A stretch of DNA of 22,444 nt from Myxococcota bacterium (GTDB taxonomy: Bacteria > Myxococcota > JACRCW01), in contig JBFMGU010000177.1 of NCBI GenBank assembly GCA_040752415.1, forward strand, positions 1-22,444, in the 5' to 3' direction. Positions 162-22,444 of this stretch are shown here, piece by piece. Numbering within the stretch: position 1 is the stretch's first letter; each line of letters starts with the position of its first letter. The position numbers were made by a program, and so were the translations under genes. Below the pieces are notes generated by a model that worked only from the letters and a program-made list of their open reading frames with translations, had not been told where the DNA came from and did no database searches.

Positions 162-1409
162 TCACCCCAGCCCCAGCGGCAACCTCACCGTGAAACACGC
201 CCCCTGCCCCGGCGCGCTCTCGACGGTGATGGCGCCCCCGTGCGCCTCCACGATGTGTCGCGCCACGTACAGCCCCAGCCCCAATCCGCGGTAGCTGGTG
301 ACGTCGGTGGCGCGCTCGAAGCGGCCGAAGATGCGCTCCTGATCCTGCGGCGCAATGCCGGGACCGTGGTCGCGCACGGTGATGACGGCGTGCTCACCTG
401 TGCGCGTGCTGGCCACCTCCACCGGGTGCCCCGCGCCAAACTTGGCCGCGTTGTCGACGAGGTTCCGCACCACCTGCCCCAGCCGCACCGGGTCCCACGC
501 CCCGCGGATGCCCGGCTCCGTGCTGACCTCCACCGGCGTGACGTGGTTGGCCCGCACCTGCGCCACCGCCAGCAGCACCAGCTCCGAGAGGTCCACGTCC
601 TCCTCGGGTTTCACCGTGAGTCGCCCCAGGCGGATGCGTGAGGCGTCCAGCATGTCCTCGGCCAGGCGCCCCAGCCCCGCCAGCTGTCGCTGCGAGACGT
701 CCAGGTAACGCACCAGCGCGTCCTCCTGCGGGTGCCCGCGGAACGCCCCCGACGACACCAGCTTGCGCAGCACGTGCATCTGCAGCGTCAGCGGCGTGAC
801 CGGCGTGCGCAGCTCGTGGGCGGCCATGGCAATGAACTCGTCGCGCAGGGCCAGCTGGCGTTGCAGCTCGTCGCGCGCGGCGCGCGTCTCGTCCAGGGAG
901 CTCTTGAGACTCTGCAGCAGCTGCACGTTCTGCAGGGCCACCGCGGTGCTGTGCGCCAGGGATTGCAGCAGCTTCACCTCGTGCGGCTGGGCGCGGTGGT
1001 GGCTGGCCCAGTAGTTCCCGATGGCGCCAATGGGCTGCTCGGTGCGGATGGGCACCATCACCAGGCTCTTGACGAACGTGGGGCGGTACGCGTCGGCGGG
1101 AATGCGCGGGTCCTGGTAGATGTCCTCCAGCGCCACGGGCTGCGCGTTCAGCATGGCCCAACCGCTGATGCAGGAGGTGATGGGGAAACGCTTGCCGCGC
1201 CACAGCGGGCCAATGGCGTCCTCCTCCACGTAGTGGCACAGGTCGCCCTCGCGCAGCACGAAGGTGGCTCCGTCGGCGCCGGTGAGCCTGCGCGCCGCCT
1301 TCCGCACCACGTCCACCACCGTGTCCAGGTCGGGCGCCAGGGAGAGCTGCTGCACCACCTCCACCAGGTGCTCCATGCCCTGCGCGTACGCCTCCGAGTC
1401 CGAGGTCAC
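162..1409 (-). CDS. GAF-domain sensor histidine kinase (GAF-HisKA-HATPase), about 415 aa
   Basis: GAF region (GADGATFVLREGDLCHYVEEDAIGPLWRG...SLVMVPIR), H-box MAAHELRTP, N-box NLVDNAAKF, G1 DHGPGI, G2 GLGLGL. Start reassigned to GTG 1409, overlapping the upstream TGA (GTGA 1406-1409); the track's longer N-terminus is an off-frame read of the receiver gene. Confidence 0.93.
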   Translation of the reverse strand: MTSDSEAYAQGMEHLVEVVQQLSLAPDLDTVVDVVRKAARRLTGADGATFVLREGDLCHYVEEDAIGPLWRGKRFPITSCISGWAMLNAQPVALEDIYQDPRIPADAYRPTFVKSLVMVPIRTEQPIGAIGNYWASHHRAQPHEVKLLQSLAHSTAVALQNVQLLQSLKSSLDETRAARDELQRQLALRDEFIAMAAHELRTPVTPLTLQMHVLRKLVSSGAFRGHPQEDALVRYLDVSQRQLAGLGRLAEDMLDASRIRLGRLTVKPEEDVDLSELVLLAVAQVRANHVTPVEVSTEPGIRGAWDPVRLGQVVRNLVDNAAKFGAGHPVEVASTRTGEHAVITVRDHGPGIAPQDQERIFGRFERATDVTSYRGLGLGLYVARHIVEAHGGAITVESAPGQGACFTVRLPLGLG

Positions 1410-1792
1410 CGGGCCCCTCGCTGCGCGAGCCGGTGCACCACGCGGAAGAGCGCCTCCGGGTCCACCGGCTTCTCCATCACCACGTCGGCGCCCAGCCCGC
1501 CGGCGCGGTCGGCAAACGCGGTCAGCACCACCACCGGGATGCCCTGGCGCTCGGCGTCGGCGCGCAGCGCGGCCAGGAACTCCCCGCCGTTCATCACCGG
1601 CATCATCAGGTCCAGCAGGATCACCGCCGGCCGGGGCGCGCTGGTCAGGGTGGTCCACGCGGCGCGGCCGTTCTCCGCGGTCAGCACCTGGAATCCCTCC
1701 AGCTCCAGCACGCTGCGCAGCGACTCGCGGATGTCCTCCTCGTCGTCAACCACCAACACGCGCGGCGCGCCCACCGCCCCCGTCGTGCGCAT
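1406..1792 (-). CDS. Single-domain response regulator (CheY-like receiver)
   Basis: VLVVDDE, phosphoacceptor ILLDLMMPVMNG, VVVLTA, EKPVD; no output domain. Start uncertain (ATG 1792 or 1828). Confidence 0.92.
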   Translation of the reverse strand: MRTTGAVGAPRVLVVDDEEDIRESLRSVLELEGFQVLTAENGRAAWTTLTSAPRPAVILLDLMMPVMNGGEFLAALRADAERQGIPVVVLTAFADRAGGLGADVVMEKPVDPEALFRVVHRLAQRGAR

Positions 1793-3239: not shown

Positions 3240-3870
3240 TTGTTGCTGGGGGACTCGCTGGCGTGTCCAGCCCATCCGACGCGGGCCCACCTGATCCACA
3301 CCGTCCTCCAGACGCGGCAGCCCACGGTGATGGGCAGCGTGACGAGGGAGTACCTGGCGTCACGGGCGCAGAGCCCGGAGCACCTGGAGCTGCTGCTGGC
3401 CGCGGACATCCATTCCCTGATGGCGGTTCCGCTGACCCGGGGCCGCTTCCTGGGCGTGATGCTGCTGGCGTCCTCCCAGCCATCGCGTCGCTACGGTCCC
3501 GAGGACTTGCGTCTCGCGGAGGAATTGGCCAGCCGCGCCGCGCACGCCCTGGAGTACGCGCGCCTCTACCGCGCCGCGCACGAAGCCATTACCGCGCGTG
3601 ACAACGTGCTGGCGATCGTCTCCCATGACCTGAAGACGCCGCTCTGCGCCATCCAGCGGAGCACACACCTGCTGATGCGCAACGACGCCCACGGCAAGGA
3701 CCTGGCGTCCCTGAAACATGTCCGGGCAATCTGATCGTCGAGCACACGCATGCAGCAGCTCATCGACGGTCTGCGCGACGCAGGAATGATCGAGGCGGGT
3801 CAGTTCACCGTCGACCCGGCGCGGGCGGAGGTGCGTGACCTGCTGGAAGCGGTGGTGCAGGATTGCCTCC
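3240..3870 (+). pseudogene. Decayed GAF-HisKA histidine kinase fragment
   Basis: Partial GAF (SLMAVPLTRGRFLGVMLL...DLRLAEELASRAAHALE), H-box IVSHDLKTPL, in-frame TGA at 3732-3734, then same-frame HisKA continuation (RMQQLIDGLRDAGMIEAGQF...VRDLLEAVV). No HATPase motifs follow. Ends approximate. Confidence 0.8.
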
Positions 3871-4036: not shown

Positions 4037-5599
4037 TCAGGGGCAATGTTGCGGTTGCGCGCCATTGCCCTCATCCACCAGGTACCAACCCTCCACCACG
4101 TGGCCGAGCAGCAGGTGCTCCTCGCACGAGCTCGTCGGCGCAAGGTCGGTGAAGTCATCCTCCCGCACGAAGAGCCACGCAAAGAGCGGCGTGCGTGCAT
4201 AGCCCAGCGCGCATTGCATGTTCCCCGCGCTGATGGGCCCGCCCGGCATGGAGCCGGAACACTGCGGCGCGTTGACGCCCACGCCAATCACGCTGTCCGG
4301 ACTGCCGCACGGGTCGTTGTCCGCCAGGAACCCGATGCGCACGCGCTGCACCAGCCCGTTGGTGGGATTGGGAGCGTTGTTCACGCCTTCGCGGTTGCAG
4401 TTCGCCTGGAGCCGCGGGTCGGGCACCAATGCTTCCCAGGCGGCGCGCCCCGCACTGGTGGCGACGAGCTGCCCGCCCGCAAGCGCCACCGCCAACGACG
4501 AGGCGGCACCGGGCCAGGCCAGCGGCGACACCAGGACTCCCGGATGCACGCGGTCGGGCAGCACCTCCGTCTCCAACCGGATCTGCGCCGCCGGGATGTC
4601 GTGGAAGGACGCCAGCAGCGCTTCCTGGTGGTCCCGGTCGGCGGCCTGGGGCTGGTGGGTGGTACCTGCCGTCCAGAGCTGCGAGTTGTATCCGAAGGTC
4701 AGTTCCTCACCATCCACCTTCAGCGCCAACGTCCACCCGCCCCCGTCCGACGTCATGTCACAGTACGCCGAGAACGGCGCGCTGCCTTCCGGTCCGTCGA
4801 CGTCCAGCACGTACACGCCCGGAGTCTGCTCCCCCGCCGAATTCAGCAGCATGGCGCAGCTCCGGTTGGAATACACCAGGACCGGCACATCCACGTCGAC
4901 ACGCAACCCGGTGGCGTCGGTGGCCATCAAGCGGAAGGCATCCGGTCCCACGAAGGAACCGGTGGCAGCGTAACGGAGCGTGAATCCCCCGGCCACGTCG
5001 CCCAACACCGCCGCCACGCCGTGCGCGGGCTGCTCCGTTACGTTCACCTGCCGCAGGTCTCCGTCGGGATCGGTGACGGTCAGGGAGACCTCCACGGTGT
5101 CGTCCATGGGCACCTTCACGCGGAACGGAGCCACGTCGGGCGGACTGCCGGGCGCACCCGCGTCGCCACCGGTGGAAGAAGCGGTGGATGACGACGTGCC
5201 CGAAGTGACCGCGGACGAAGCTGCGGACGCCGCGCTGGACCCCGACGAGGAGGACGCCGTGGAGGACGCTCCCCCGCTGTCCGCCGACGTCGACGACGAT
5301 GAGGATGACGGTGATGATGTGGACAACGACGCGCCTCCGTCCGGCGCCGCGCCCGACGTTGACGACGCGCTGGTGGCAGTGGCCCGACACAGGCTGCCCA
5401 CACACACTTCGCCGCCCTCGCACTCGCCGGAATCGTCGCAGACGCGGTGGCACACGTCGTCTTCCGCGCAGCCGAACCCCGGTGCGCAGTCGCTGCCGTC
5501 CTCGCAGTTGTAGGTGCCCGCCAGCCGGCATGCGACGCCCGACGCGCCGAGCAGCGCCGCCATCATCACGCCCGCCAGGACTGGCCGCATGGGCGCCAT
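4037..5599 (-). CDS. Secreted/lipoprotein: 8-Cys module, Ser-rich linker, Ig-like domain, fibrinogen-like YCDxxxxGGGW domain
   Basis: Signal MAPMRPVLAGVMMAALLGASGVAC (imperfect lipobox), Cys module, poly-Ser linker, TDPDGD...QPAHG...FVGPDAF Ig-like pattern, SC...GVYVLDVDG...AYCDMTSDGGGWTL. Start ATG 5599 or 5590. Confidence 0.82.
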   Translation of the reverse strand: MAPMRPVLAGVMMAALLGASGVACRLAGTYNCEDGSDCAPGFGCAEDDVCHRVCDDSGECEGGEVCVGSLCRATATSASSTSGAAPDGGASLSTSSPSSSSSSTSADSGGASSTASSSSGSSAASAASSAVTSGTSSSTASSTGGDAGAPGSPPDVAPFRVKVPMDDTVEVSLTVTDPDGDLRQVNVTEQPAHGVAAVLGDVAGGFTLRYAATGSFVGPDAFRLMATDATGLRVDVDVPVLVYSNRSCAMLLNSAGEQTPGVYVLDVDGPEGSAPFSAYCDMTSDGGGWTLALKVDGEELTFGYNSQLWTAGTTHQPQAADRDHQEALLASFHDIPAAQIRLETEVLPDRVHPGVLVSPLAWPGAASSLAVALAGGQLVATSAGRAAWEALVPDPRLQANCNREGVNNAPNPTNGLVQRVRIGFLADNDPCGSPDSVIGVGVNAPQCSGSMPGGPISAGNMQCALGYARTPLFAWLFVREDDFTDLAPTSSCEEHLLLGHVVEGWYLVDEGNGAQPQHCP

Positions 5600-5741
5600 G
5601 TTAGCGCCCGGCAGCACGCAAGTGGGAGGGTAACGCCTGGGGCACCCATGACTTCGCGCCGGCCGTGTCCCTGGTGAAGGCTGCTGGCGGGATGTGCGCG
5701 GCCTGAACACGTCGACGAGTTGATCGGCGATGGCGAGGCCA

Positions 5742-8033
5742 TCAGTTGGCGCGCTCCACGCGGAGTGACAGCGGCGCCTCGGAGGTGGGAGCGAGCTGAG
5801 CGGCCACGTGCTCGAACGGCATCTCCGACGGGAAGACGTGGCCGCCGTCGGTGACCAACTCGGCGGGCACGGCGCTGAAATCCATGGGCAGGGCCAGCGC
5901 GGCCTCGGGAGGGGCGCGGGCGGGAATCTGGGGCGGTGCGCCGCGCGTGAGGAGGAGCTCCACCCGTCGGATGCCAAGGCCGTAGGCCACGCCCAACGCG
6001 CGAGCCACCCGCTGCCAGGACACGCGACGGTCCACCATCACCAGCAGCTGCACCCCGTCGGGGAGCGGAGCCTCCGCGCGCGCCAGGCGGTGGGAGAGGT
6101 CCAGCCCCAGCGCACCCAGACCCTCCGTCGACGACAGCGACGCGGTCAGCCCCACCCGCTGCGAGTCCAGCGCCACCACGTCGCGCCCCACGCGCAGGGA
6201 CGGCGCGAGGTGCGGCGACGGGAGCCCGGCGCGTGCCACCGGCGGATCGAGGTGGGCGAACAGCTCGAACATGGGAGTCAACGCCGCGCGCACCTCACTG
6301 CGACGCGTGGTCATCTGGCTGCGGATGGCCAGGTCGGTGGCGATCCACAGCAGCATCGTCGTCGCGAGCAGCGCCGTGCCGCGGTCGGGTTGCCACACGC
6401 TGCGGCCCACGCGCCGGAGGCGGAGCGCGGAGAAGGCCAGCGTGGTGAGGAGGGCCAGCGTGGAGAGCGTGGTGGTGGCGGTCATCTCCGCGTTGGCGGC
6501 AAGCATCTCGAGCACGCGCGCGGCCCGGGTGTCCTGCCAGGACCAGAGCACGGCCTCCCGCGCCTCCACGCGCGCATGCGCGGCCACCGCGGCCATTCCC
6601 ACCACGAGCAACCGGTGCAACGCGAAGGGCAGCTCCTCCCGCACCGACCGGCTCGTCGACGACACCAGCACGTGCGCGAGCGCCGCCAGGCCCATCACCA
6701 GCGCGCCGGAGGGAGCGCCCAGGAGGACCGCACAGAGCGCGAGCACGCCGAGCACCGCGGCCACCCAGCGTCCTTCCCGGCGCGCCGTGTGATCCACCGG
6801 CCCCGACGCGGTCACCAGCGCGGCCAGCAGCAATCCCGACGAGAGACCGAATCCCACGAAGCGGTTCACGCTGGCCTCGCCCAGTCCCTCGTTGAACACC
6901 TCGAAATGTCGCGCGGGGTCCAGCTCCGGCAGCTTGCTCACGATGGCGAGGTAGCCGGTCCACGTCCCGGTAGCGCCGAGCGCGGCGGGCATGAGCGCGG
7001 AGACGGGAACCGAGGTCTGCCTCCGACGAGCCAGGTGCACCGCCCCGACGAGGAACGCCATCACCGTGGGCCAGAACGCGTACCCGGCGAGGTGGGCCCA
7101 CAACCGCGGGTCGTGCGAACCGGCGTGCCCCGCGGCCAGCAGCGCCAACGGCGCCACCGCCGCCATCCCCAAGCGGGTCAGCACCGGCGCGGCGGGCGCG
7201 GCCACCGTGACCCCGAGCGCGGCGTCCACGGCTTCCATCCACATCGCCACCGAGGGGAACCGCGCCGCGGGGTCCTTGGCCAAGCCACGCGCCAGCACGC
7301 CTTCCAGCGCGTCGTCCACATCGACACCAAGCGAGCGCAGCGACGGCGGCACCGCGGAGAGATGAGCCTGCATCACCGCCACGTAGGCGTCTCCGTCGAA
7401 GGGCGGGCGCCCGGCGAGCATCTCGAAGAAGACGGCGGTGAGCGCGTACTGGTCGCTGGCGGGCCCCACGTCCCTGTTCCACCACTGCTCGGGCGGCATG
7501 TAGTGCGGGGTGCCCAGCGGAATTCCCGTGCTGGTGAGCCGCTCCGCGGGCGCGTGGGTGCGGGCCAGGCCGAAGTCGAGCAGCCGCGGCGCGTCGCTCT
7601 CGTCGAGGAAGATGTTCTCCGGCTTGATGTCGCGGTGGATGACGCCGGCCTGGTGCACGGTGGAAAGCGCCAGCGCCACCGGTCGCAAGAGCTGCCAGGC
7701 GCGTTGCGGTGGAAGCGGACGGGCCAGCTCCGCGCGCAGGTTGCGACCCTTCAACAGCGGCATGACGTAGAACGGCCGCCCGTCGGGGAAGGTGCCCACG
7801 TCCAGCACCTGCACCAGGTTGGGATGACGCAGGGTGCGCAGCGTCTCCGCTTCCCGCTGGAACCGCGCGGCGGCCTGCGGCTCGTCGACGAGACCGGAGC
7901 GCAGCACCTTGAGCGCCACGTCCATCCCGTCGCTCTCCCGCGTGGCGGCGAAGACGGTTCCCACTCCGCCCTCCCCCACCGGCTCCCGCAGCCGATAACC
8001 GCGCACCACCTCGGGGAGCGTGGCGGTGCTCAT
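5742..8033 (-). CDS. Membrane Ser/Thr protein kinase with multi-TM region and ExbB-like/ExbD-like C-terminal half, 763 aa
   Basis: GEGGVG, VALK, HRDIKPEN, DFG, GTPHYMPPE; several hydrophobic helices after about aa 285. ATGA overlap with upstream gene (8030-8033). Kinase call is firm; ExbB/ExbD call is by-eye inference. Confidence 0.92.
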   Translation of the reverse strand: MSTATLPEVVRGYRLREPVGEGGVGTVFAATRESDGMDVALKVLRSGLVDEPQAAARFQREAETLRTLRHPNLVQVLDVGTFPDGRPFYVMPLLKGRNLRAELARPLPPQRAWQLLRPVALALSTVHQAGVIHRDIKPENIFLDESDAPRLLDFGLARTHAPAERLTSTGIPLGTPHYMPPEQWWNRDVGPASDQYALTAVFFEMLAGRPPFDGDAYVAVMQAHLSAVPPSLRSLGVDVDDALEGVLARGLAKDPAARFPSVAMWMEAVDAALGVTVAAPAAPVLTRLGMAAVAPLALLAAGHAGSHDPRLWAHLAGYAFWPTVMAFLVGAVHLARRRQTSVPVSALMPAALGATGTWTGYLAIVSKLPELDPARHFEVFNEGLGEASVNRFVGFGLSSGLLLAALVTASGPVDHTARREGRWVAAVLGVLALCAVLLGAPSGALVMGLAALAHVLVSSTSRSVREELPFALHRLLVVGMAAVAAHARVEAREAVLWSWQDTRAARVLEMLAANAEMTATTTLSTLALLTTLAFSALRLRRVGRSVWQPDRGTALLATTMLLWIATDLAIRSQMTTRRSEVRAALTPMFELFAHLDPPVARAGLPSPHLAPSLRVGRDVVALDSQRVGLTASLSSTEGLGALGLDLSHRLARAEAPLPDGVQLLVMVDRRVSWQRVARALGVAYGLGIRRVELLLTRGAPPQIPARAPPEAALALPMDFSAVPAELVTDGGHVFPSEMPFEHVAAQLAPTSEAPLSLRVERAN

Positions 8034-9547
8034 GCGCCTTTTCCGCGTCCCAATCCGTGCGCGCGCAACAGCTCATGGAGGTGGGAGCGTGCCAGCCCGA
8101 TGCGTCGCCCGGTCTCGCTGACGTTGCCACCACACGCCTGCAGCGCCTCCTGCAGGAACCGCTTCTGGAAAGCGCGCAGCGCGTCCTGGTAGCTCGTGGG
8201 TGTCTCGGGTGTCGTCGTGGCGGGAGCGTCGGGGAAAAGGTGGCGGACCTCCAACACGTCGCTGCCCTCGCTGAGCGCAAAGGCCACGCCGCGCTGGATG
8301 GTGGAGGTGAGCTGCCGGACGTTGCCGGGCCATTCCGCGTGCATGAGCGCGGAGCGGGCCGCCCAGGAGGGCGTCATGCGTCTTCCGTGCGACGCGCTGG
8401 CCGCCGCGGCCAGGTGCTCAGCGAGCAGCGGGATGTCGTCGGCACGCTCGCGCAGCGAGGGAGCGCGGATGGTGAGCACGTTGAGCCGGTAGAACACGTC
8501 CTCACGGAAGCGCTTCTCCGCCACCGCCTGTGCCAGGTCCACGTTGGTGGCGGCAATGATGCGGACATCCGCTTCCACCGGCACATCCGCGCCCAGGCGC
8601 CAGTATCGCCGCGACTGCAGGAACTGCAGCAGCTTGGGCTGGCAGGACAGCGGGAGCTCGCCAATCTCATCGAGGAACAGTGTTCCCCCGTCGGCGGCGG
8701 CGATCTTTCCGGGGATGCGACGCGTGGCGGTGGAATGCGCGCCCTTCTCCGCGCCAAACAGCTCGGCCTCCAGCAGCGTCTCCGGGATGGCCGCGCAGTT
8801 CAGCTCGACAAAAGGCCCCGCGGCACGACGCGAGCTCTGGTGGATGGCCCGCGCCATCTCGGTCTTGCCGGTGCCGCTCTCGCCGGTGAGGAGCACGGTG
8901 ACGTCGACGGAAGCGGCCACCACCATCTGCCGGAACGCCTCCGCCAGCGCGCGGGAACGCCCCACCAGTCCCTCGGCCTTCAGTCGCGCGCGTGACTCCG
9001 CGGTGTGGTCCACCGTCGTGGCGGCGGCGCGTCCTTCGCGCAACAGGCGCTCCACGTAGGGCGCAATGCGCAGCGCGACCAACTCGAGGAGCTTCTGCGC
9101 GTCGGCGGGGAACGGGCCGGGTGCGGTGCGACCCTGCAGGTACAACACGCCGAGCGGAGAGCTTCCCCCAATGGGCGCGCACAACACCGCCTGGATGCGA
9201 TGGGCCTGGACACTCTGCTGGGTCTTGAAGCGCGGGTCGTCGAGCGCACTGGCGGTGGACACGGTGCGACCGGTCTTGAGCGCCTCCGCGATGATGCCGG
9301 TGCTGAGCTGGCCGCGGATGTTCCGCAGGTCCTCCTCGCTGCACGCGTGGCTGACGTGCAGGACGGGCGGGGCCTCCGGTTTAGGCCTCAGCTCCAGGTA
9401 GCCCTGACGTGCGCCGGTGATGTCCACCACCATGCCCAATGCGTCGTCGAGGAAGGCGGGGAGCTCGTCGTGGGAGCCCAGGTCCAGCAAACGGCGGTAG
9501 AGGTCGCGCTCGGCGCGCAGCTGCTCCAGGTCACCGGCGTTGTCCAT
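8030..9547 (-). CDS. GAF-AAA+-Fis HTH sigma-54-type enhancer-binding protein (GAFTGA loop reads GAHSTA)
   Basis: N-terminal GAF, Walker A GESGTGKT, FVELNCAAIPETLLEAELFG, Walker B LFLDEIGE, REDVFYRLNV, WPGNVRQL, HTH GNVSETGRRIGLARSHL. Confidence 0.95.
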   Translation of the reverse strand: MDNAGDLEQLRAERDLYRRLLDLGSHDELPAFLDDALGMVVDITGARQGYLELRPKPEAPPVLHVSHACSEEDLRNIRGQLSTGIIAEALKTGRTVSTASALDDPRFKTQQSVQAHRIQAVLCAPIGGSSPLGVLYLQGRTAPGPFPADAQKLLELVALRIAPYVERLLREGRAAATTVDHTAESRARLKAEGLVGRSRALAEAFRQMVVAASVDVTVLLTGESGTGKTEMARAIHQSSRRAAGPFVELNCAAIPETLLEAELFGAEKGAHSTATRRIPGKIAAADGGTLFLDEIGELPLSCQPKLLQFLQSRRYWRLGADVPVEADVRIIAATNVDLAQAVAEKRFREDVFYRLNVLTIRAPSLRERADDIPLLAEHLAAAASASHGRRMTPSWAARSALMHAEWPGNVRQLTSTIQRGVAFALSEGSDVLEVRHLFPDAPATTTPETPTSYQDALRAFQKRFLQEALQACGGNVSETGRRIGLARSHLHELLRAHGLGRGKGA

Positions 9548-18052: not shown

Positions 18053-18964
18053 ATGACCCTCACCTCGGAACGGGCCCCCCTGATCCGGCGTCCCACGCGG
18101 ACGCACGAGATCACGCTCACCGACCCCTCGGACCTGAGCGACGTGGAGGACATGCTGCGTGACCACGTCACGCGGGGCACGCTGGAGCTCCCTCCCCTAC
18201 CGGGAACCGCCGCGGAGCTGCACCGCCTGGCCTCCGACCCGCGCGCCACCCTGGACGACGTGGGCAAGCTGGTGGAACGGGAAGCCAACCTGGCCTCCCG
18301 CGTCATGCGCGTGGCCAACTCCCCCGTGCTGCGCGGGACCAGCCCGGTCACCGATCTCCGACGGGCCATCACCCGCCTGGGCATTGCCGGCGTGCGCGAC
18401 CTGGCCATGGCCGTCTCCATGGGCCGGGTGCTGCGGAGCGGGCCGCTGCTCAAGGAGACGCAGCGCGTGGTCACGCATTCCTTCGCCGTGGCGTGCGGCG
18501 TGCAGTGGGTGTGCAAGCAGCTCCAGCTTGACGCGCAATACGGGTTCCTGTGCGGCCTGATGCATGACATCGGCAGCATTGCGTTGCTCTCGGTGCTTGC
18601 GCCCATGGCGGAACGTGACCCGCGCCTGCGCAACGTTTCCGCCGTCGGAAAGCTGGTGGACGGGCTGCACGCGGAGACCGGCGGGCTGGTGCTGCAACAC
18701 TGGCGGATGCCGTCGCTGGTGGCGGACGTGGCGCGGTGGCATCACCGTCCCCACCAGGCCGGCGCGGCCATGCCCATGACGCTGGTGGTGGCGGCGGTGA
18801 ACGACGCGGCCCGGCCCGAGGTGAGCGGAGCGCAGCGGGTGGCGCGCCTGGCGCAGACTCCCGGTGTGTACCAGGCCGGCCTCACCCCGGCGCATTTCCC
18901 CATGCTGGCCCGCCTGCTCGACGACGCGCTCTCCGACGAGATGGTCCAGTCGCTCGCGGCGTGA
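18053..18964 (+). CDS. HDOD domain signalling protein, 303 aa
   Basis: LPPLP, LASRVMRVANSP, AITRLG, HSFAVA, GLMHDIG, HAETGGLVLQHWRMP...VARWHH. Confidence 0.92.
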   Translation: MTLTSERAPLIRRPTRTHEITLTDPSDLSDVEDMLRDHVTRGTLELPPLPGTAAELHRLASDPRATLDDVGKLVEREANLASRVMRVANSPVLRGTSPVTDLRRAITRLGIAGVRDLAMAVSMGRVLRSGPLLKETQRVVTHSFAVACGVQWVCKQLQLDAQYGFLCGLMHDIGSIALLSVLAPMAERDPRLRNVSAVGKLVDGLHAETGGLVLQHWRMPSLVADVARWHHRPHQAGAAMPMTLVVAAVNDAARPEVSGAQRVARLAQTPGVYQAGLTPAHFPMLARLLDDALSDEMVQSLAA

Positions 18965-20949: not shown

Positions 20950-22029
20950 TCAACCATCGACGTCATCCAGCAGCGCTTCGGACAGCAGGCCGGTATTCAT
21001 CCCGGTCCCGGTCAGCTCGTCCAGCTCCAGGGTGGCCTCCTCGTCGTCGGAGAGCAGCTCGGAGAGGCGGACGCGCTCGGGGTCGGTGTGCGGCGGAAAG
21101 AGCGCGTTCATGAATGCTCCCACGTCGGGCGCGCGTCCCTCACCGCTGCCGTTCAGCCATGCCAGCAGCGCCGCGCGCATCTCCTCCGCGGCCTGCCACC
21201 GACGTGATGGCTCCTTCTCCAACGCCTTGAGACAGATGCGCTCCAGCTCGGGCGGGGCCTTGGGGTTGAGCTCACGGGGCGGCGCCGGCTCGCGTTCCAG
21301 GACGGATTCCAGCACCTCCAGGTCGCTCTCACCGCGGAAGGGGCGCGACAGCGTCAGCAGCTCGTAGAGGATCACCCCCACGGAGAAGAGGTCGGAGCGC
21401 GCATCCAGCGGCTTGGCGTCAATTCCCTCGGGTGCCACGTAGCGCGCCTTGCCGCGCAGGATCCCCGCCGCGGTGTGGCCCGCGCCAAACGCCGCGTGGC
21501 GCGCCTTGGCAATCCCGAAGTCCACCAGCTTCACCTCGCCGCCGTAGGTGATGAGGATGTTCTCCGGGCTCATGTCGCGGTGGATGAGTCCCAGCGGTCT
21601 CCCGTCGGGGCCGCACAGGTTGTGCACGTAGCCCAGTCCCGCGAGCACATCCGCGAGCACCCGCGCCACCACGCCGGAGTGCGGGTAGCGTCGTCGTTGC
21701 TGGCAGGCAATGGCCACCTGCTTGAGGTTCCGCCCCTCCACGAACTCGATGATGAGCGCGTGACCACCGCGCCCGGTGGCCAGGTCCAACACCTTCACAA
21801 TGCGCTCGTGGGAGAACGTCCGCGCCAGCGCCGCCTCGCGCAGGAACATCCGTCGGGATTCCGCGTCGTTGCTCAGCTCCGCGCGCAGGCGCTTGATCAC
21901 CGCGGGTTGCGCGCCCCGGTCCTCGCGTCGGGCCAGGTACACCTCCGCCATCCCGCCCCGCCCCAACAACCCCAGGACGCGATATCCCGCGAAGGTGGTT
22001 CCCGCCTGCAGCTCCCCCGTTTGCTCCAT
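20950..22029 (-). CDS. Cytoplasmic Ser/Thr protein kinase, about 359 aa
   Basis: GRGGMAEVY, AVIK, HRDMSPEN, DFGIAK, GKARYVAPE, DARSDLFSVG; short acidic tail, no TM. Start ATG 22029 or GTG 22053. Confidence 0.94.
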   Translation of the reverse strand: MEQTGELQAGTTFAGYRVLGLLGRGGMAEVYLARREDRGAQPAVIKRLRAELSNDAESRRMFLREAALARTFSHERIVKVLDLATGRGGHALIIEFVEGRNLKQVAIACQQRRRYPHSGVVARVLADVLAGLGYVHNLCGPDGRPLGLIHRDMSPENILITYGGEVKLVDFGIAKARHAAFGAGHTAAGILRGKARYVAPEGIDAKPLDARSDLFSVGVILYELLTLSRPFRGESDLEVLESVLEREPAPPRELNPKAPPELERICLKALEKEPSRRWQAAEEMRAALLAWLNGSGEGRAPDVGAFMNALFPPHTDPERVRLSELLSDDEEATLELDELTGTGMNTGLLSEALLDDVDG

Positions 22030-22444
22030 GGGAGCGGATGGTGACCGCGTCACACGCGGAGGGCAAGACCACTCCGTCGGCGCGCGGGAATCACGCCGCC
22101 TTGGCCGCGGGAGTGAACCCCGACTGGCTGCCCTTCTGCATCAGCTGGGTCTCATCCCCGGGTTCGATGCACGGCGCGGTGGAGGAAGTACATGAGGCCC
22201 ATGGTGATCAGCATGGCCGCCGACACCGTCGATGCGACGCAGTCGGATTTTGGGTGCGGCTCTTTTGAAACGACGCTTGGCCGCAGCCGTAAGCACGTCC
22301 GCAGGTGGCCGGCAATGGTCAGCCCGGTGCCGCGCCGTCATGACGACGGAAAACGGCACGCGATGCGACCGGACCGACCGATTCAGCGCGCTGGAGAACC
22401 GGCCTGCAATGTAGGGGCTGCCCGTTGCCGGTAACGCGTGAACG

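Follow-up and report, generated by a model that had tools for sequence, protein, structure and literature searches.

A receptor-type Hanks kinase of Myxococcota with a membrane half probably derived from ExbB/TolQ-type and ExbD/TolR-type subunits

The kinase gene and its family

The stretch of DNA analysed here, referred to as the window, comprises 22,444 nucleotides of contig JBFMGU010000177.1 from a Myxococcota bacterium (assembly GCA_040752415.1) and encodes a Ser/Thr protein kinase on the reverse strand. The open reading frame (ORF) starts with ATG, is open throughout and codes for a protein of 763 residues with an N-terminal kinase domain, nine predicted membrane helices and a C-terminal periplasmic domain (Table 1). 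On the basis of sequence comparisons and predicted structures this protein is considered, with a probability of about 0.85-0.9, to be a receptor-type Hanks kinase that keeps its kinase domain in the cytoplasm, leads outward through helix 1 and has a membrane half derived from one ExbB/TolQ-type and one ExbD/TolR-type subunit, with four helices between them. A single chain made up of a kinase, an ExbB/TolQ-like part and an ExbD/TolR-like part had been proposed in an original prediction made from the letters of the window, and is backed by the profile, profile-profile and fold matches described below. Both stator-like units are present as predicted, and four further helices lie between them.

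Table 1. Features of the kinase gene and of the activator gene upstream, with positions in the window
Feature	Positions	Strand	Basis or remark
Whole gene: kinase, nine predicted membrane helices and periplasmic domain	5742..8033	-	763 aa plus stop
Hanks-type Ser/Thr kinase domain (residues 13-280)	7194..7997	-	Pfam Pkinase E 1.4e-39; K42, E61, HRD 133-135, N140, DFG 153-155
Helix 1 (residues 286-301), predicted to join the cytoplasmic kinase to the outside	7131..7178	-	AlphaFold2 helix, loop charges
ExbB/TolQ/MotA-like three-helix unit (residues 302-410): G317 start motif, T357 in GT.TG, E386 and R391 in G..EA...RF.G	6804..7130	-	Profile, hhalign, fold
Helices 5-8 and conserved outward helical hairpin (residues 411-545; W497, R503, invariant R506)	6399..6803	-	AlphaFold2 model, family alignment
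Helix 9 (residues 551-572), carrying D567, at the presumed place of the ExbD/TolR membrane helix	6318..6383	-	Asp/Glu conservation, covariation with R391
Linker helix and conserved F..F..LDPP motif (residues 573-611)	6201..6317	-	AlphaFold2 model, family alignment
ExbD/TolR-like periplasmic domain (residues 612-697), invariant D668 and G687	5943..6200	-	hhalign, profile, fold, Pfam in members
C-terminal tail (residues 698-763), P708, E710, invariant D718	5745..5942	-	Poorly modelled
Upstream GAF / sigma-54 AAA+ / HTH_8 activator gene	8030..9547	-	Stop overlaps kinase start in ATGA

The kinase domain, claimed to be intact in the original prediction, matches Pfam family PF00069 over residues 13-222 with 136.5 bits against a cut-off of 31.7. 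In agreement with that match, the full set of catalytic residues (K42, E61, H133-R134-D135, N140 and D153-F-G155) is present, and each of them is kept in at least 90% of the family rows. The closest match in NCBIfam is NF033483, the kinase part of the PASTA kinases. Besides the kinase, no family of note was obtained in the Pfam scan of the 763-residue protein.

A word-indexed search with residues 285-763, the part that follows the kinase domain, identified six relatives. The profile built from these six was compared with 1.84 billion cluster representatives and retrieved at least 172 sequences at E-values of 1e-3 or lower, 143 at 1e-10 or lower and 119 at 1e-30 or lower. A set of 71 proteins, spanning from profile position 25 or lower to 455 or higher, is treated as full-length in the counts that follow. 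In 66 of these the module begins at residue 225 or later, after a region of the size of a kinase, and a Pfam Pkinase match is found in 60 of the 62 family members scanned. The named records of the family are labelled Polyangiales, Sandaracinaceae, Myxococcales, Polyangia or Myxococcota. The family is sparse: it is represented in at least one of 401 genomes sampled from the own phylum, in one of four in the own class and in at least five of 301 genomes sampled from the class of another genome (G401), counts that may be low because three first-look candidates per genome were scored in the scan of 401 genomes and five in that of 301. A search for related loci with a family profile gave one metagenome locus and three genome loci, and the same search with the single protein as query gave none. 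One further genome (G402) has the homologous kinase gene split over two contig ends (L019/L025 at the end of C53 and L023/L035 on C715), which looks like an assembly break and not a split gene.

The ExbB/TolQ-like and ExbD/TolR-like parts

The AlphaFold2 model of residues 285-763 contains nine long helices, with a predicted local distance difference test score (pLDDT) of 76.6 and a predicted template modelling score of 0.76. The stretches noted in the original prediction are found where it had placed them, namely the peptide AGYAFWPTV at residues 316-324 (bases 7062-7088), the stretch from PAALGATGTWTGY to GLGEASVNRFVGF at residues 349-395 (bases 6849-6989) and the segment from LDPP to RRVEL at residues 595-693 (bases 5955-6251). 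These motifs are conserved in the family and are not chance strings, since G317 (70/71), G383 (69/71) and also T357, E386, D668 and G687 are retained across the 71 relatives.

For residues 285-440, a profile was compared with the complete set of 73,296 six-frame ORFs (80 residues or longer) from the own genome. Following the protein itself (E-value 1.2e-40), the best match is an ORF of 107 residues on contig C331 (1.4e-10), and next come three of the seven ExbB paralogs of the genome (3.5e-8, 8e-6 and 1.9e-4), after which the list drops to 0.033 and the remainder lies above 1. The alignment to ExbB falls into two pieces. Helix 1 of ExbB, with its GG..MYPI start, corresponds to helix 2 of the kinase protein, and the hairpin of ExbB helices 2 and 3 (LLGTVTG ... 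GISEA) aligns to helices 3-4. Between the two pieces about 85 cytoplasmic residues of ExbB are skipped, the corresponding loop averaging 18 residues in the family. The helices and the register are those read in the original prediction, but the cytoplasmic domain between the first two ExbB-like helices is missing. Profile-profile comparison with ExbB by hhalign gives the same register at probabilities of 14-42% (P-values of 2.6e-4 to 2e-3).

The predicted model of residues 285-440, based on 74 alignment rows, has a pLDDT of 93.2 and was compared with 48,161 solved chains. ZorA (8vvn_C) ranks first with a Z score of 10.0 and a root-mean-square deviation (rmsd) of 2.3 A over 104 residues, and ExbB (6ye4_A) second with a Z of 9.7, yet with an rmsd of 19.1 over 135. 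Ranks 3 to 5 are held by a type II ZorAB chain (8vvi_F, Z 8.9), ZorA (8qyh_A, 8.4) and MotA (8gqy_A, 8.1), and MotA, PomA and TolQ reappear at ranks 10, 22, 24 and 33. MotA_ExbB clusters are also included among the neighbours in the ESM Atlas, which serve as a lead only.

Similarity to ExbD and TolR was identified in the C-terminal domain. Against the same set of ORFs, a profile of residues 590-720 has ExbD paralogs as eight of its top ten non-self matches, the best E-values being 2.2e-7, 1.3e-3 and 3.1e-3, and hhalign comparison of these residues of the family with an alignment of 13 own-genome ExbD paralogs gives a probability of 93% (P-value 2.7e-7). D668 and G687, each invariant in the 71 members, align to the conserved Asp and Gly of ExbD. 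In the fold search with the model of residues 285-763, the TolR of E. coli (5by4_A) ranks first among the 48,161 chains with a Z of 8.4 and an rmsd of 3.1 A over 80 residues, covering residues 604-697 (320-413 of the model), and further matches are to the TolR of H. influenzae (2jwk, Z 6.5) and to ExbD (2pfu, Z 5.8). Pfam ExbD is the sole non-kinase family that recurs in the members, with weak matches in 9 of 62 and a best E-value of 1.2e-4. The structure neighbours of residues 545-763 in the ESM Atlas are ExbD clusters, again a lead only.

Several polar residues that are characteristic of the two subunits could be compared. T357, aligned with the Thr of the GT motif of ExbB, is kept in 52 of the 71 members, and E386, aligned with the Glu of ExbB helix 3, in 69. 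The ExbB paralogs of the own genome have a Thr five residues after this Glu, and 55 of the 71 members have an Arg (R391) at that place; the reading that the GT Thr and the Glu are kept and that the later Thr has become Arg is borne out at the family level. We take the Glu to be E176 of ExbB, by which numbering position 391 is equated with Thr181, and Pro190 would presumably lie 14 residues after the Glu, where the family has Gly or Ala. Neither the second conserved Thr nor the Pro of ExbB helix 3 is retained in the family. One study names Thr181 of ExbB as a conserved residue along with Thr148, Pro141, Pro190 and the Asp that is essential in the helix of ExbD (PMC12215075). The original prediction had seen no clear PLIDV-like Asp motif. 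Contrary to this, helix 9 (IATDLAI) carries D567, a position that is Asp in 52 and Glu in 6, and so acidic in 58, of the 71 members.

Positions 391 and 567 vary together. An Arg at 391 is combined with an acidic residue at 567 in 54 members, one member has the Arg only, four have the acid only and twelve have neither (Fisher test 1.7e-9, kinship ignored). After average product correction, the mutual information of this pair is the highest of all 96,014 pairs of columns that are separated by more than 20 residues. On a tree built without both columns, the joint loss of the pair falls into two clades, of six and five members, and one single sequence.

The predicted membrane topology follows from the charges of the loops. 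Those after helices 2, 4 and 8, predicted to lie inside, have net charges of +2.8, +1.7 and +4.3 in the 71 members, and those after helices 1, 3, 5 and 7, predicted to lie outside, are near neutral (-0.2 to +0.3). With the kinase taken as inside, the ExbB-like unit is predicted to run out-in, in-out and out-in, and helix 9 in-out, and because of this charge bias the C-terminal domain would be located outside the cytoplasm. The orientation of ExbB and ExbD in the membrane is established, and the predicted helix orientations agree with it. The original prediction had named three outcomes that would count against it, namely the lack of a match of residues 310-410 to MotA/ExbB, the lack of a match of residues 590-700 to ExbD, and a cytoplasmic C-terminal domain. 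It was found that residues ~302-410 match MotA/ExbB by profile, profile-profile comparison and fold, that residues ~604-697 match ExbD/TolR by profile, by fold and by Pfam in 9 of 62 members, and that the loop charges place the C-terminal domain outside.

Helices 5-8 and the C-terminal tail also contain conserved residues. R506 and D718 are each present in 71 of 71 members, and W497, R503, P708 and E710 are invariant or nearly so. A hairpin predicted to point outward lies between helices 7 and 8 (6480-6575, reverse strand, residues ~487-518). After the ExbD-like domain a tail motif, TRG..P..P..APPEA..LP.DF, is conserved, and structure neighbours in the Atlas suggest, as a lead only, that such a tail is common to long ExbD-family proteins of Bacteroidota. 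No own-genome match below an E-value of 0.03 was obtained for helices 5-8, and hhalign comparison with ExbB, ExbD and helices 2-4 gave nothing beyond the overlap of the two cuts, for which reason a second, degenerate ExbB repeat was discarded as a reading.

Gene context of the kinase

The activator gene that overlaps the start of the kinase gene has relatives in the same place elsewhere. Linkage to GAF activators in other genomes had been proposed as a check in the original prediction, and a close relative of the activator is found directly upstream of the kinase gene in five of the eight loci with enough upstream sequence (the window, L018, L030, L032 and L034, the last being the same place as L020); locus L033 is insufficient for judging the activator.

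The ORF on contig C331 that heads the own-genome list, here called mini-ExbB, is the closest paralog of helices 2-4 of the kinase protein in its genome. It lies at 6205-6525 on the reverse strand (locus L021), about 290 bp from the contig end, and encodes 107-108 residues with three helices. No match was obtained for it in the NCBIfam scan. Twelve relatives at 47-68% identity have been identified. They are encoded downstream of the kinase gene in three of the seven loci that could be assessed, at distances of 187 bp (L032), 153 bp (L034) and 3.3 kb (L030), and none was found near the kinase gene in the other four (the window, L031, L033 and L035). A sigma-54-type sequence, TGGCACGCGCGTGGCA, is situated 63 nt before the ATG of the mini-ExbB gene on C331. 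The pattern TGGCAC-N5-T[TGC]GCA precedes the mini-ExbB start in three of four cases, by 63 nt (C331), 69 nt (L030) and 68 nt (L032), and the fourth case, L034, has a poorer version of it. The 20 kb of L030 and the 10.5 kb of L032 contain no other match, and the one on C331 is one of 16 in the 11-Mb genome.

The gene directly downstream of the kinase gene in the window (4037-5600, reverse strand) occupies the place where other loci have mini-ExbB. It encodes a Ser-rich protein with matches to Big_9 and to fibrinogen-C-like sequences and with an apparent signal peptide, MAPMRPVLAGVMMAALLGASGVAC. Further signalling genes in the window encode a histidine kinase of GAF-HisKA-HATPase organisation (162-1658, reverse strand), an HDOD protein (18053-18964, forward strand) and a second Hanks kinase, which has no membrane module (20950-22053, reverse strand). 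An ORF of 164 residues at 3240-3734 on the forward strand encodes a C-terminal fragment of a GAF domain and no more than positions 1-30 of HisKA, and might represent a histidine kinase gene that is broken or was wrongly assembled.

Proposed role and alternative explanations

ExbB/ExbD-type units are known as the force-generating motors of the Ton, Tol, flagellar, gliding and Zorya systems. Like ExbB-ExbD, TolQ-TolR, MotA-MotB and ZorA-ZorB, the kinase protein has a core of three ExbB-like helices in which the GG start motif, the helix-2 Thr and the helix-3 Glu are found. Its periplasmic domain has the alpha/beta fold of TolR and ExbD, the one membrane helix ahead of this domain may correspond to their helix with a buried Asp, and both parts are predicted to be oriented in the membrane as in the stators. 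The stators are ion-driven motors of 5:2 composition, whereas the kinase protein combines one copy of each part (1:1) in a single polypeptide, which also includes the kinase and, between the two parts, four additional helices. Unlike ExbB, it has no cytoplasmic domain between the first and second ExbB-like helices, an Arg in place of Thr181 and no equivalent of Pro190. Its linker is longer by 25 residues, it has a tail of 66 residues, and the curated models of the stator families do not detect it. The receptor Hanks kinases PknB, PrkC and StkP have one membrane helix and PASTA repeats. In them, as in the present protein, the kinase is N-terminal and cytoplasmic and is connected across the membrane to a sensor domain on the outside, putative in the present case and plausibly tied to the envelope. 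The present protein differs from them in its nine helices, its motor-derived module and its pairing with a sigma-54 activator. No published description of a kinase fused to ExbB- or ExbD-like parts was found in the full-text literature searched, which comprised journals outside subscription. Term look-ups in two evolutionary surveys of these motors likewise revealed no kinase fusion, the word kinase occurring zero times in the one (PMC12204202) and only as the name of a laboratory enzyme in the other (PMC12505986).

The degenerate ExbB/ExbD-like module of the original prediction stands, and that it is repurposed as the sensory input of the kinase is what we infer. In the proposed mechanism Arg391 would pair with Asp567 of the ExbD-like helix, giving a fixed 1:1 contact in cis instead of a turning motor. 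Protonation or membrane potential acting on this buried charge pair, or else an event at the periplasmic domain, where the cell wall or some protein partner might be engaged as it is by TolR and ExbD, would move the helices and so switch the kinase, which probably works as a dimer. The kinase would then phosphorylate the GAF/sigma-54 activator encoded just upstream, which could act at the sigma-54-type promoter before the free mini-ExbB gene, expression of mini-ExbB being the output. For the whole chain of sensing, activator phosphorylation and mini-ExbB output, taken in its general form, the odds appear even, and any single step is held with less confidence.

A number of results weigh against the derivation of the module from stator subunits and against the proposed circuit. 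Among the curated models, neither Pfam MotA_ExbB (PF01618, cut-off 22.9 bits) nor Pfam ExbD (PF02472, cut-off 25.4 bits) matches the protein at an E-value of 1 or lower, whole-genome scans with both models miss the contig carrying the kinase gene, and MotA_ExbB is absent among the families listed for the 62 scanned members. The hhalign probabilities for ExbB are low. Helix 9 alone gives no own-genome match below an E-value of 0.03 and no hhalign match to ExbB or ExbD, and the same holds, by own-genome search and by hhalign, for helices 5-8 (residues 408-550) and for the tail. Foldseek returns nothing at an E-value of 1e-3 or lower for either model: with residues 285-440 the top rows are the ZorAB chain 8vvi_C and MotA at 1.3, and with residues 285-763 TolR and ExbD appear at about 0.4 with probabilities of 0.96 and 0.99. 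The Z values of the ExbB-like match (10.0-8.1) can also be reached by unrelated helical bundles, and that of the ExbD-like match lies likewise in the range that such bundles can attain without kinship. R492 and E516 of the outward hairpin covary with R391 and D567 as well, so that part of the signal between 391 and 567 may stem from clades. As regards the circuit, the activator is absent upstream of the kinase gene in three of the eight loci (L017, L019 and L031), mini-ExbB is unlinked to the window in its own genome, the reverse search, started from the profile of mini-ExbB, misses the kinase and gives ExbB no better E-value than 0.31, which is not significant, and the sigma-54 consensus with up to two mismatches occurs five times in the window against 11.3 expected, which is nothing beyond chance.

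Since the Z values lie in a range open to helical bundles and the Foldseek results are not significant, the case for homology of the ExbB-like part rests on the agreement between sequence and fold evidence. An alternative, that the resemblance to ExbB and ExbD arose by convergence or from composition and that the membrane half is an unrelated multi-pass domain, could be argued from the failure of curated Pfam and NCBIfam models to reach the protein, from the readiness with which helical membrane segments give middling structural scores and from the search of the PDB with the family profile of residues 285-763, which gave three weak unrelated matches and no ExbB, ExbD or TolR chain. We nevertheless regard it as very improbable, given that profile, profile-profile and fold comparisons and the Pfam ExbD matches in 9 of 62 members indicate one and the same pair of families, correctly ordered and oriented, that the own-genome lists are headed by ExbB and ExbD paralogs well ahead of other membrane proteins, and that language-model and structure neighbours point, as leads, to both families. 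Granted the homology, the motor-derived part might be an evolutionary relic that serves as an anchor and dimerisation device, the signal entering elsewhere, for example at the hairpin that separates helices 7 and 8, at the tail or by way of a partner protein. The conserved residues W497, R503, R506 and D718 do lie outside the ExbB- and ExbD-like parts, helices 5-8 and the tail are without known relative, and the periplasmic domains of TolR and ExbD are dimeric in solved entries, according to the titles of 5by4 and 8pek. A mere anchor, however, has no need of a retained Glu386, of the coupling of Arg391 with Asp567, or of D668 and G687, and this explanation appears unlikely.

A working or nearly working assembly of the 5:2 type can also be envisaged, to which two kinase chains would contribute two ExbD-like axle helices and two ExbB-like units, the rest of the ring being made up of free mini-ExbB, and in which the kinase reports on ion flow or is driven by it. 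The retention of the acid in helix 9 (58/71), of Thr357 and of Glu386 would suit such an assembly, as would the existence of a free and conserved paralog of exactly the ExbB-like unit, with its twelve relatives and co-location in three of seven loci. The missing large cytoplasmic domain need not by itself speak against motor function, as a short type of ExbB is known from the family model TIGR02805 of 138 positions. Against it, an Arg at the equivalent of Thr181 would block the proton relay in 55 of 71 members, no Pro is present at the equivalent of Pro190, four extra helices per chain must be accommodated, and mini-ExbB lies on a separate contig in this genome and was not found in the vicinity of the kinase gene in four of seven loci; we therefore consider a functional motor of this kind to be decidedly unlikely. 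Returning to the module as a sensor with a fixed 1:1 contact, a self-referential circuit is conceivable, in which the kinase reads this contact as a measure of proton-motive force or envelope strain and induces mini-ExbB, which in turn joins or titrates the sensor. Two fused and three free ExbB-like units around two ExbD-like helices, for example, might restore the 5:2 count. This is put forward as a speculation with little chance of being right; if true, a rotary motor would here have given rise to a device for signalling in which the supply of a subunit acts as feedback.

If the proposed derivation is true, a Ser/Thr kinase has acquired both subunits of a motor, joined in one chain, as its input module. 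Most of the key polar residues are kept, and one Thr position of the pore is occupied by an Arg whose variation is coupled to that of the axle Asp. The protein would offer a natural 1:1 stator contact, in which the docking of the Asp-bearing helix on an ExbB-type subunit could be studied. It would be a candidate sensor of membrane energisation or of the state of the envelope in Myxococcota, would connect Hanks kinases with sigma-54 activators, mini-ExbB being the defined candidate target gene, and may show how parts of a motor were turned into a signalling device.

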